64,000 nt of DNA, taken from assembly GCA_048938105.1 (NCBI GenBank), contig JBHLMN010000007.1:128001-192000 (forward strand). The letters run 5' to 3'. A program made the translations under genes and the position numbers. This stretch comes from Promethearchaeota archaeon. Lineage in GTDB: Archaea; Asgardarchaeota; Heimdallarchaeia; Hodarchaeales; Hodarchaeaceae. Below, piece by piece: positions 40,774 to 64,000 of the stretch; position 1 is the stretch's first letter, and every line of letters starts with the position of its first letter. Below the pieces are notes generated by a model that saw nothing but the letters and a program-made list of their open reading frames with translations, ran no database searches and was not told the DNA's origin.

Positions 40774-41037
40774 TTATTCAACTTTTCCAGCAGCAAGTCG
40801 AATATCGGAGTCTTTTATGGTTTTACGCCCCGAATGACCAGCAATTTCCACTGCATAGCGAGCAATTTCTAGGCCTCTATTAACGATGATTTGATTCAGA
40901 CTTGTAATAGCATCAGCTGAAACCCGAAAAGCTCCCGCATCTCTTATGAGTCTCTCAACACGAGCTCCTGCAAAACTTGCTTCTCCTTTTGCTGGCTTTG
41001 GTGCTGCTTTCTTCGCAGGTGTTTTCTTTTTTGCCAT
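40774..41037 (-). CDS. Archaeal histone (HMf fold) with ~19-aa Lys-rich N-terminal tail
   Basis: RLIRDAGAFRVSADA...IAGHSGRKTIKDSDIRLA aligns with HMfB (RIIKDAGAERVSDDA...LARHAGRKTIKAEDIELA). Confidence 0.95.
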   Translation of the reverse strand: MAKKKTPAKKAAPKPAKGEASFAGARVERLIRDAGAFRVSADAITSLNQIIVNRGLEIARYAVEIAGHSGRKTIKDSDIRLAAGKVE

Positions 41038-59985: not shown

Positions 59986-61950
59986 TCAAGTATTTTGAAA
60001 AAGAACCTGGTGAAAAAAGGCTGCTTCTCTTGTCAATGCATCAATATTATTTTCCTTTTTCCTAAAACCATGAGCCTCTCCTTCATATTCAATGTACTCA
60101 TTAAGGATTCCTTTTTCTTTAAGAATCTCTGCCACCTCACGAGATACTTCAGGTACGACAACTTTATCATCTTTACCTTGAAATAAAATCATCGGTGATT
60201 TTAATCTATCTAAGTGATTAATTGGTGAACGTTCTTTGTAGATTTGTTCACCCTCAGGATCGGACAGAGGTTTTCCCATTAACCAATCAATGTATCTTGA
60301 TTCAAATTTATGAATTAGTTTAGTTAGAGTGATTAAATTCCCAATTCCATAATAACTCGCTCCTACTTGAAATGTATCTGGGAATAATGTTAATACACGT
60401 TGTACTGCATATCCTCCTGCGCTTCCTCCTGTGATAGCTACTTTTTGAGTAACAATTCCTTGTTGCAGTAGGTAATCAACGGCATCTTTAATGTCTTGAG
60501 CATCGATGACACCCCATGTTCCTTTTAATGCGTCTCTATACTGTCTTCCATAAGATGTACTTCCTCGATAATCAAGATCAATGATAGCATATCCTTGATT
60601 AGTCCAAAACTGCTTTGTTAATGTATACCCTCTCTTTGCTCTTGCGGTAGGCCCTCCATGAACCATAACGATTAATGGTGGTTTGTCTCCTTCAGGGGCA
60701 ATATAATTCTTATTTTTTGGCAAATATAATAGACCATAGGCTCTCTTTCCATCGGAAGTTGGATATTCAAGATGTTGAGGTATAGAGATGTCCTGTTCTG
60801 AAAGAGGATTTGTGAAACATGATTTAATAATGTCATAAGTCATTGATTGAAGATCAAGCTTAACAAGAGTAGAAGGTTTATTGAAACTATTACCAAAAAA
60901 TACAATTTCATGTTCCGAATAAGCCTGAATTCCATAATAGTCATCAAAAGGTGACTGGAGTGTTTCTAAAACCCTTGTTATAGGGTCGATTAAGGCAAGA
61001 AAGCTTTGCCCTTTCTTTTCATAATTTGCTACAATTCGTCCACTACTAGGCAAAAAATCCCAGCTCATGAATCGAAAAACCCACATTGGTAATCCAAACT
61101 CTGCAAGTTCCTGTGTGATCGCTCTTATTTCACCATCATCATACTGGTAGAGATTCCACCAATTTTTCGGGCTTTCTTCTGGTTGACCCTCTTCGTCCAT
61201 GACAAAGAAGACACTCCCGCTACGGTTGAATCGAATTGCACCGACAGAAATCCCATTTCCCCCTATAATAATTTTCTCAGACCCTGGTACAATAGACTTG
61301 TCCTTAAAATCAGCCAGTACGAGTTCTGTGGAGTTCCATGGCATATTAGGATGATTAAATTGTATCCAAGCAATTTGCCTCCCATCTGGAGAGATTATAG
61401 GATCAAAATAGAAGTCTTTTCCTTCCACTATAACTGTAGGCTCTTGAATAACATTTTTAGTAATATCAAGGTAAGCAATATAGTTTTCATTCTCTTTTTC
61501 TACGAATTCTTTCTCATAAACAAAGATAAGCACATTCTCATCTGGGGTTAAAACTGGGGCTGCATATTTCCCTAAAGAGCCATCCTCATTTTTCTCGGGG
61601 GTTAATGGGACTGGTGATTCGTTTATTCCAATTTTTTTTTGATAGAGACGCTGATCATTGAAATTAACATAGAAGACATTCCTTTCACCTACCTCCCAAC
61701 ACATGCCACCATATTCATGAACACGAGTTCGGACATTTGCATCTGTAGGTAAGACATCAAAAACACCCCCCTTATCGTTTTGACAAACGAGGGCGACTCT
61801 ACCATTCTCTGCAGGACGCAATTCAGACCAATAGATATTATCATTAACAATTTTAATATCATTGAAAGATATTGTATCTTCAAAAACCTGTTCGGGTGTT
61901 ATATTGGAAATCCATTCATGATAAGGTTTCATCTGTTTATTTTTTACCAT
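59986..61950 (-). CDS. S9 family peptidase (prolyl oligopeptidase/acylaminoacyl-peptidase-like)
   Basis: RTRVHEYGG, VHGGPT, DYRGSTSYG, GGSAGG, QGKDDKVV, EAHGF. Confidence 0.93.
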   Translation of the reverse strand: MVKNKQMKPYHEWISNITPEQVFEDTISFNDIKIVNDNIYWSELRPAENGRVALVCQNDKGGVFDVLPTDANVRTRVHEYGGMCWEVGERNVFYVNFNDQRLYQKKIGINESPVPLTPEKNEDGSLGKYAAPVLTPDENVLIFVYEKEFVEKENENYIAYLDITKNVIQEPTVIVEGKDFYFDPIISPDGRQIAWIQFNHPNMPWNSTELVLADFKDKSIVPGSEKIIIGGNGISVGAIRFNRSGSVFFVMDEEGQPEESPKNWWNLYQYDDGEIRAITQELAEFGLPMWVFRFMSWDFLPSSGRIVANYEKKGQSFLALIDPITRVLETLQSPFDDYYGIQAYSEHEIVFFGNSFNKPSTLVKLDLQSMTYDIIKSCFTNPLSEQDISIPQHLEYPTSDGKRAYGLLYLPKNKNYIAPEGDKPPLIVMVHGGPTARAKRGYTLTKQFWTNQGYAIIDLDYRGSTSYGRQYRDALKGTWGVIDAQDIKDAVDYLLQQGIVTQKVAITGGSAGGYAVQRVLTLFPDTFQVGASYYGIGNLITLTKLIHKFESRYIDWLMGKPLSDPEGEQIYKERSPINHLDRLKSPMILFQGKDDKVVVPEVSREVAEILKEKGILNEYIEYEGEAHGFRKKENNIDALTREAAFFHQVLFQNT

Positions 61951-62089
61951 CTTAAGCACCACGTAAGGAAGTCTTGTAGAATGTATGTTAATTCATGAAG
62001 CTTTTTACATGATTTTAATTGAAATTGGTTATTAATATATTAGACATATTTAGAATTATAATCCTAGAGCTGAAAAATCTGGATCCTCT

Positions 62090-62260
62090 TTAGTAGCTAA
62101 AATGTTGTTCATCTAATTTTTGACACACATTATCAACTTTCACACGAGTATGGCTAACAGGAACAACTATATGACCATGTTCTGCTAATCCAATGGTAAG
62201 AGCTTCTCCTATTCCACTAGATCCACCGAATATAACTATAACATTCTCATTGGTTTTCAA
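62090..62260 (-). pseudogene. Truncated short-chain dehydrogenase (N-terminal Rossmann fragment only)
   Basis: GGAGG RBS then TTG 62260; VIVIFGGSSGIGEALTIGLAEHG; stop after 56 aa with no room for the remainder. Confidence 0.65.
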
Positions 62261-62626
62261 ATACAATCCTCCAATAAATTGTGCTTCAAAACACAAAATA
62301 GATGATAAGATTTTTCTTCATTGATATTGAATCCTTTGCTGTGATAATTTCCATCTTCTTTGCTTTATTCAACCATTCTTCTATTTCTTCTCTAATAAAG
62401 GGCCAAGATTCGCTCAATATGAAAACCTTTATGAATTCTAGATTAATGTTTCACTTTCTACTTCTCAATTAGCTATAATTTCACATGTTAATCTGTTCCA
62501 GATCAAAATATAGATAAAATATGCCAAATGATATGGGAGCTCTATAAAAATAATAAACATAATCTTCGCTTAGAAATATTCCTCTCGGAAATCCAAAAAT
62601 AAATATCCTATTTATGTGATAAAATT

Positions 62627-64000
62627 ATGAGATCAGCCAATTCTGACGAAGCTACATCTTCTAAAGATTTTATTCGAAAAATGATTTCAGAAGATGTTAA
62701 AAACAATAAAAATAATGGCCGAGTCCATACTCGATTCCCTCCTGAACCCAATGGTTGGTTACACATTGGTCATGCGAAATCAATTCATCTCAATTTTAGT
62801 ATTGCAAGTGAATTCAATGGATTATGCAATTTACGGTTTGATGACACGGATCCTGCTAAAGAAAGCATGGAATATGTAGAGGCAATTAAAAAAGATATTC
62901 AGTGGCTCGGGTTCGATTGGGAAGATAGACTCTATTTTGCATCGGATTATTTTGAACAATTATATCAATTTGCTATAGAATTAATTAAAACTGGAAAGGC
63001 TTATGTTTGTGATTTAAGTGTAGAAGAAATTAAAGCTCAAAGGGGAACATCAGATGAGCCAGGGAAAGAAAGTCCATATCGTAACCGATCAGTAAAAGAA
63101 AATCTTGATCTATTTGAAAAGATGCGTAAGGGGGAGTTTAAGGATGGTTCCCGCGTATTGAGGGCAAAAATAGACATGAAATCTCCTAATATGTTAATGC
63201 GTGACCCAATAATGTACCGAATAAAGAGGGAACCGCATTATAGAACAGGGGACAAGTGGGTCATATATCCCAGTTATGATTATACTCATGGTCAATCAGA
63301 CGCCATCGAAGGAATTACTCATTCAATCTGCTCATTAGAATTTGAAACACATAGACCTCTATATAATTGGTATAGGGACCAACTCCTTTCTTTAAACATG
63401 CTTAAATACTGTCCAGAACAAATTGAATTTTCACGACTAAACTTAACATTTACGGTTATGAGTAAACGACGTTTATTAGAATTAGTTGAAAATAGGCAAG
63501 TATCAGGATGGGATGATCCTCGAATGCCCACACTTGCGGGTTTACGTAGACGTGGTTTTCCTCCAGAAGCAATCAGAAATTTTTTAGCTAAAGTCGGAAT
63601 ATCAAAAAGAGAGAATTACATAGATGTAGGCCTTTTAGAAGCCTGCGTCCGTGAAGAAATGGATAAAAAATGCGATCGTGTAATGGCTGTACTGCATCCC
63701 TTAAAGATTGTGATTCAGAATTATCCAGAGGATAAGGTTGAAGAACTAGATGCCCCTAATCATCCCAAAAATCCAGATAGAGGTTCACGGAAAATACCAT
63801 TTTCACGAGTACTATACATTGAACATGGCGATTTTCTTGAAGAACCTCCAAAGAAATTCTATCGACTTGCGCCTGGAAGAGAGGTTCGACTTCGATATGC
63901 ATATTATATAAAATGTATTAATGTAATTAAAGATGAAAAATCGGGGGAGATAATAGAATTGCATGCAACATTTGATCCTGAAACCAAAGGAGGATTTGCT
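62627..64000 (+). CDS. glnS: Glutamine--tRNA ligase, bacterial type (3' end beyond the window)
   Basis: Manual translation: [99 protein letters not shown]; 458 open codons to the edge. Confidence 0.95.

Follow-up and report, generated by a model that had tools for sequence, protein, structure and literature searches.

A gene for a bacterial-type glutaminyl-tRNA synthetase (GlnRS), glnS, lies at the end of the 64-kb window analysed here (the whole stretch G000:C42:128001-192000), which is part of the 269,382-base contig C42 of a Hodarchaeales genome (G000; 5.85 Mb, 65 contigs, 99% complete). We consider it highly probable that this gene encodes a resident enzyme imported from bacteria, which has its own pair of G73/A37 tRNA-Gln and would work in parallel with the GluRS/GatDE route of the host. 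Sequence analysis established the identity of the gene, its residence on the chromosome and its tree position, as well as the existence of two tRNA-Gln sets and how these co-occur with the enzyme.

According to reviews up to 2022 no archaeon has GlnRS, an absence that has been explained by the mismatch of A73 tRNA-Gln with the bacterial and eukaryotic GlnRS (PMC9499178, PMC8762117). GlnRS is mentioned in passing among the neighbours of the cox genes (coxABC) in Hodarchaeales in a preprint (bioRxiv 10.1101/2024.07.04.601786). This neighbourhood does not hold in G000, with no cox gene found among the genes annotated around glnS (over some 5.6 kb on its upstream and 12.7 kb on its downstream side) and no PF00115 (COX1) match found anywhere in the 99%-complete genome. 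No paper turned up in a literature search for 'archaeal GlnRS'. The presence of glnS is already known from the NCBI annotation and from that one preprint mention; it is not the presence of the gene but the system-level arrangement, i.e. GlnRS and linked G73 tRNAs beside GluRS/GatDE, that appears to be new.

The glnS gene and its product

The glnS ORF starts at window position 62627 on the forward strand and leaves the window after 458 codons (Table 1), and it was missed by the ORF track, as the preliminary description of this DNA had remarked, only because the window end cuts the gene. On the contig the gene is intact and encodes 572 aa (G000:C42:190627-192345, corresponding to L024:5627-7345), its stop codon being located 345 bases past the window end at G000:C42:192345 (L024:7345). 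Upstream of the ATG only 8 codons are open before a stop codon is met, which makes a longer N-terminus impossible, and the eukaryote-type GlnRS domains PF04558 and PF04557 were not found in the protein; the short N-terminus devoid of a eukaryotic appended domain that had been read from the sequence is thus borne out. The glnS promoter is presumed to lie within the divergent intergenic region that separates the gene from an S9 prolyl-oligopeptidase-family gene. In G000 and G003 the latter gene has glnS on one side and a nitronate monooxygenase gene on the other, while it is not there in the closed G009 or in G011.

In order to assign the protein, it was compared with family models, domains and solved structures. 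It scored 723.3 bits with TIGR00440 (glnS, NCBIfam; cut-off 425.8), while the 370.3 bits obtained with TIGR00463 (gltX_arch) remain below the cut-off of 401.75. PF00749, PF03950 and PF20974 were each matched end to end with no further domain in the Pfam search, which corresponds to a catalytic domain of the class I E/Q type and two beta-barrel anticodon-binding domains. The closest solved structure is Pseudomonas aeruginosa GlnRS (5BNZ, E 1e-208), followed by Escherichia coli GlnRS (1e-201), with weaker matches to eukaryotic GlnRS (about 1e-140) and GluRS (1e-80 or weaker). The HIGH, MSKR (as VMSKR) and THSICSLEF motifs named in the preliminary description were all located by alignment. R36, which is found 10 codons upstream of HIGH, Y217, C235 and Q265 align with R30, Y211, C229 and Q255 of the E. 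coli enzyme, which we take to be glutamine-site residues. As expected from the earlier remark that a Cys stands where GluRS has Arg, almost every GlnRS-type row of a 230-row alignment has Cys in the C229 column, and six out of six Asgard GluRS have Arg there. The window gene is assigned on these grounds as an intact bacterial-type class I GlnRS.

When compared to bacterial GlnRS (E. coli GlnS, 1GTR/1QTQ/1O0B; P. aeruginosa, 5BNZ; TIGR00440), the protein is of similar length (572 vs 553-564 aa) and displays the same three Pfam domains, HIGH, VMSKR and the R30/Y211/C229/Q255 equivalents; it differs in having an archaeal host, where it coexists with an archaeal GluRS and GatDE. Eukaryotic GlnRS (human QARS1, yeast Gln4) has the catalytic core and the glutamine-site Cys in common with the window GlnRS but bears the N-terminal PF04558 and forms a separate clade (see below).

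The best-scoring NCBIfam model for the window protein is NF011291 (838 bits), a model of the GlnRS/YqeY fusion of the Deinococcus radiodurans type (2HZ7), and this is the source of the NCBI product name even though the GlnRS part alone is matched (positions 2-565 of 769). Neither PF02637 (GatB_Yqey) nor PF04558 was found in the window protein by Pfam search. Unlike the D. radiodurans-type fusion, it thus lacks a C-terminal GatB/YqeY domain, which P0127, a true fusion, does have. The YqeY-fusion name is misleading for the window protein, the 572-aa protein being the one that was checked under that name and in which the YqeY domain is absent. NCBI attaches the same name ('glutamine--tRNA ligase/YqeY domain fusion protein') to archaeal proteins of 555-593 aa, e.g. 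P0005-P0007 and P0023. Other GlnRS homologues (P0057, P0058, P0066-P0068, P0086, P0103, P0104 and P0107; 692-708 aa, 66-68% identity to the window protein) bear a C-terminal PF01588 domain (tRNA_bind, EMAP-like). In the close homologue P0004 (832 aa) the catalytic and first anticodon-binding domains each occur in two stretches, which may be due to an internal duplication of part of the protein or to misassembly of its 6.5-kb contig.

Table 1. Positions of glnS, its motifs, neighbouring features and the tRNA-Gln genes (window coordinates unless a contig is named)
Feature	Position	Strand	Basis or remark
glnS, first 458 of 572 codons	62627..64000	+	ORF; TIGR00440; PF00749, PF03950, PF20974; 5bnz match
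HIGH motif, residues 46-49	62762..62773	+	alignment to E. coli GlnRS chains, column counts
THSICSLEF, residues 231-239, including C235	63317..63343	+	alignment, column counts
VMSKR, residues 277-281, KMSKS-type loop	63455..63469	+	alignment, column counts
Divergent intergenic region, 664 bases, S9 peptidase gene to glnS	61963..62626	.	ORFs; annotated neighbours
S9 prolyl-oligopeptidase-family gene	59986-61962	-	
Archaeal histone-fold gene	40792-40968	-	PF00808, 44 bits
Linked tRNA-Gln(CUG), no intron	C42:192451..192380	-	35 bases past glnS stop; Rfam tRNA, 63 bits
Linked tRNA-Gln(UUG), 34-base D-loop insert	~C42:192609..192503 = L024:7503-7609	-	ARAGORN mis-reads insert
Canonical tRNA-Gln(UUG), T-loop intron	G000:C18:49692-49795	-	
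Canonical tRNA-Gln(CUG), intron at 37/38	G000:C11:135862-135968	+	

Residence on an archaeal chromosome and origin of glnS

An assembly or binning artefact, by which a piece of bacterial DNA would have been fused to an archaeal genome or placed in the same bin, is scarcely credible as an explanation, although the MAG has a contamination estimate of 7.25% and the protein is 62-67% identical to GlnRS of sediment bacteria. The gene is found mid-contig, at 190.6 kb of 269 kb, and the same contig bears the archaeal histone that the preliminary description had pointed out; the similar AT-richness reported there holds as well, GC being about 0.35 in all 65 contigs. The GC3 of glnS (0.255) is close to the values of the host GluRS (0.222) and gatE (0.231) and does not resemble the bacterial homologues, for which the median gene GC is 0.53, and archaeal-type tRNA-Gln genes stand directly 3' of glnS. 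Above all, the order nitronate monooxygenase-(S9 peptidase)-glnS-two tRNA-Gln-histidine kinase-radical SAM recurs in G009, G011 and G003, and G009 is the closed 4.94-Mb chromosome of a congener (4,943,496 bases, CP070695.1). In agreement with this, the closest GlnRS (70-90% identity) carry the NCBI names Hodarchaeales, Hodarchaeota, Heimdallarchaeota and Promethearchaeota. One Logan contig, from the probable source run, covers window positions 60731-64000, the 62.0-62.7 kb stretch included, with zero differences; Logan contigs of other runs are short fragments, none of which bridges the junction upstream of glnS. Since a single run gives a contig that spans this junction, the case against a chimera rests on the conserved gene order. 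As far as sequence can tell, the gene order kept in the closed chromosome refutes the artefact, no chimeric join was found upstream of 62627, and glnS is to be regarded as resident on a true Hodarchaeales (Heimdallarchaeia, Asgard) chromosome. The earlier reading of a bacterial-type GlnRS on an archaeal chromosome is thus upheld by the TIGR00440 score, the gene order in the closed relative and the tree position described below. Altogether, 11 histone-fold matches were observed in G000, including the one within the window.

In order to place the protein among its homologues, trees were inferred with FastTree (230 rows) and IQ-TREE (87 rows x 557 columns, LG+C20+F+G4 PMSF), both being rooted on six Asgard GluRS. 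A eukaryote-type and a bacterial-type GlnRS clade were recovered in both. In the IQ-TREE tree GlnRS and GluRS are split with 100/100 support, and the window protein falls within the bacterial-type GlnRS (87/80), not with archaeal GluRS, as the preliminary identification implied. The eukaryote-type GlnRS form a separate clade (100/97) whose members bear PF04558, one of them being a plant protein. Among the cluster representatives, a gammaproteobacterial sequence was also identified. All Asgard GlnRS make up a single clade (96/99), which is nested with 80/95 support in a short-branched group of sediment bacteria (Planctomycetota, Desulfobacterota, Nitrospirota, Cloacimonadota and others; 62-67% identity to the window protein), a position to be read with the reservation that the nearest bacterial rows were picked by similarity to the window protein, which could draw the Asgard clade towards them.

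Alternative topologies were compared by AU tests with the LG+G4 model, for which 47 rows were used. A joint clade of Asgard and eukaryotic GlnRS costs 46.4 lnL and is rejected (p-AU 0.0011), while forcing an all-bacterial clade with the Asgard sequences outside costs 33.7 lnL and is not rejected (p-AU 0.117). Judged by these topologies, the window GlnRS, which is 44-51% identical to eukaryotic GlnRS, clearly does not represent the stem lineage of eukaryotic GlnRS. With the joint clade rejected, the suggestion that this might be a lineage informative on the origin of GlnRS is not supported, and the Hodarchaeales GlnRS would have no bearing on how eukaryotic GlnRS arose.

Most likely, glnS was taken from bacteria long ago by an ancestor of three Heimdallarchaeia families and subsequently adopted the base composition of its host. 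We infer this direction of transfer, from bacteria to Heimdallarchaeia, from the tree, and the p-AU of 0.117 for a tree with the Asgard sequences outside bacteria means that it is not formally settled. That same tree (delta lnL 33.7) would suit an ancestral Asgard GlnRS that originated in the Heimdall lineage, or went through it at an early stage, and from which the bacterial (or eukaryotic) GlnRS descends. We regard this as quite improbable, given that in the best trees the Asgard clade is nested by several nodes within the bacteria, with short branches between the Asgard GlnRS and those of sediment bacteria, that the clade with eukaryotes is rejected and that the window protein is without the eukaryotic N-terminal PF04558. 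The distribution of the enzyme also argues against an ancestral status: GlnRS was detected in 33 of the 250 Asgard genomes sampled, all 33 belonging to three families of the class Heimdallarchaeia in which it is patchy, and it was not found in the other 26 of the 29 families of this sample. Among 40 relatives it is above the cut-off in 24, including the closed genomes G009, G015, G027 and G037. Within the window genus 12 of 20 genomes have GlnRS; it was not found in the remaining 8, which include MAGs that are 94% and 90% complete, and the enzyme thus looks dispensable.

In contrast to the short form found in the window, the GlnRS of the other Heimdallarchaeia families (f3 and f4), known as database entries, are N-extended ('chimeric') proteins of about 650 aa. 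They are sister to the window GlnRS (97/95 and 100/96) inside the Asgard clade. Their approximately 80 extra N-terminal residues resemble the N-domain of archaeal GluRS, the extension being 36% identical to the GluRS of G000 (E 2e-14). This archaeal-GluRS-like N-terminal helical domain is absent from the window GlnRS, whose alignment with L015 begins no earlier than residue 90 of L015. Like G000, the f3 and f4 families belong to the same archaeal class and retain GatE.

GluRS/GatDE and the two tRNA-Gln sets

G000 has kept its archaeal GluRS (479 bits) as well as gatE and gatD, two intact genes that lie side by side, while gatB was not found in this genome, and GatE is above the cut-off in 37 of 40 relatives. 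Since GluRS, GatD and GatE are all intact, the predicted direct glutaminylation route is an addition to GluRS and GatDE and not their replacement. The preliminary description had proposed an acquisition of direct glutaminylation, probably from bacteria; the tree favours the import, whereas the new route would supplement the old one rather than supplant it. In the f4 relatives G024, G026, G028, G030 and G036 two gatE loci are present (about 640 and about 430 bits), of which the second matches in two pieces.

No tRNA gene was found within the 64-kb window. Just past its end, 35-265 bases beyond the glnS stop codon and on the opposite strand, lies a pair of tRNA-Gln genes (CUG and UUG), and a second, canonical pair is encoded elsewhere in the genome (Table 1). 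Both linked tRNA-Gln have A1:U72, G2:C71, C3:G70, G10 and A37 and the discriminator G73. The canonical pair has an identical acceptor stem but carries A73 and G37, and inspection of the tRNA-Gln identity elements, which the preliminary description had thought worthwhile, thus sets a G73/A37 pair apart from an A73/G37 pair. The acceptor stem common to both sets suggests that the linked pair consists of duplicated host archaeal tRNAs and was not imported. Like the tRNA of a bacterial GlnRS system, the linked tRNAs display G73, A37, G10, G2:C71 and a weak 1:72 pair. A tRNA-Gln with bacterial elements (G73, anticodon, A37, G10, weak 1:72 pair) is in this way available to the enzyme, while the 3:70 pair differs (C:G). 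G73 and A37 are identity elements of E. coli GlnRS. The A1:U72 and C3:G70 pairs are unlike those of E. coli tRNA-Gln, which are U1:A72 and G3:C70.

The discriminator of tRNA-Gln is G73 in bacteria and A73 in archaea, and GatDE recognises A1:U72 and the D-loop (PMC9499178). The linked tRNA copies of Hodarchaeales, where GlnRS is resident in the archaeal order held closest to eukaryotes, carry exactly the change that the A73-mismatch explanation predicts to be necessary. This makes the old mismatch hypothesis easy to test at the bench, where two enzymes and four tRNAs would suffice.

The arrangement of glnS with a G73 tRNA pair is kept in G003, G008, G009, G011, G014, G018 and G019; in the closed G015 the G73 pair is present but 117 kb away from glnS. 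A full-length G73 tRNA-Gln(CUG) was observed in 11 of the 12 genomes of the genus with GlnRS and in none of the 8 without (0/8), counts that are descriptive as the genomes are related and non-independent and many are incomplete. Intron-bearing A73 tRNA-Gln occur in congeners both with and without GlnRS. In families f3 and f4 the tRNA-Gln(CUG) genes found carry A73 and A37, whereas the linked tRNA-Gln(CUG) of G000 carries G73; as the present comparison stands, G73 is a feature of the short-form Hodarchaeales GlnRS lineage.

The 34-base D-loop insert of the linked tRNA-Gln(UUG) is present in G000 and G003, while the counterparts in G008, G009, G011, G014 and G015 are 72 nt long and intron-free. 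The insert has the appearance of an intron that was acquired recently at a non-canonical site, and in the centroid fold of this tRNA CACA is paired with UGUG around the insert. ARAGORN finds only 35 tRNAs in G000, and it mis-parses intron-bearing tRNA-Gln genes, which it reports as 'tRNA-Pyl(cta)' in the case of C11 and as 'tRNA-Ser(act)' in that of C42.

Proposed division between two glutamine routes

The host probably obtains Gln-tRNA in two ways that run in parallel, each with a tRNA set of its own. GlnRS would directly glutaminylate the linked G73/A37 pair, and GluRS together with GatDE would serve the canonical A73/G37 pair. We infer both the activity of the enzyme and the tRNA set that each enzyme charges; no RNA run was found to contain the glnS locus. 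Some overlap between the routes is conceivable, as the linked G73 tRNAs keep A1:U72 and GluRS/GatDE might also use them, and GlnRS might also charge the A73 set.

A stricter version, in which Hodarchaeales run two mutually insulated glutamine systems, GlnRS with the host-derived G73/A37 tRNAs on the one hand and ND-GluRS/GatDE with the A73/G37 tRNAs on the other, while the sister families fused an N-domain instead, is a tentative proposal that we hold to be possible but, on balance, somewhat doubtful. If true, the insulation of the two systems would naturally overcome the tRNA incompatibility proposed to bar GlnRS from archaea, and the sister Heimdall families would have solved that incompatibility differently, by fusing an archaeal GluRS N-domain to GlnRS.

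Two PylRS/tRNA-Pyl pairs that are distinguished by G73 vs A73 have been described in the halophilic archaeon HMET1 (PMC9499178). Like HMET1, G000 would represent one archaeon with two enzyme/tRNA systems for one amino acid that differ in the discriminator base; unlike in G000, the enzyme family there is a different one, and orthogonality was tested in HMET1 while for G000 it is a prediction.

GlnRS could also be simply redundant, charging all four tRNA-Gln or the canonical ones only, with G73 and A37 reflecting drift in spare copies. Such redundancy would suit the sister Heimdall families, which have GlnRS alongside an A73 tRNA-Gln(CUG), and the apparent dispensability of the enzyme in the 8 of 20 congeners, near-complete MAGs among them, where it was not found. 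We nevertheless consider it unlikely, as drift does not fit with G73 and A37 being fixed in both isoacceptors of every GlnRS-linked pair examined (about 10 genomes), nor with a G73 pair that was never found without GlnRS and that has conservedly remained linked to the stop codon of glnS. The enzyme itself also speaks against plain redundancy: at the columns of D235 and L136, which in E. coli GlnRS we take to contact the acceptor stem, most Hod sequences differ from the close bacteria. Of 10 Hod sequences, 9 have T or S at the D235 column, where 75 of the 80 close bacteria have D or N; at the L136 column S is found in 6 of the 10, vs L in 76 of the 80 bacteria. These changes would fit an adaptation to the archaeal acceptor stem, and the window GlnRS, unlike the E. 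coli enzyme, has Thr (T241) at the D235 column and Ser (S142) at the L136 column.
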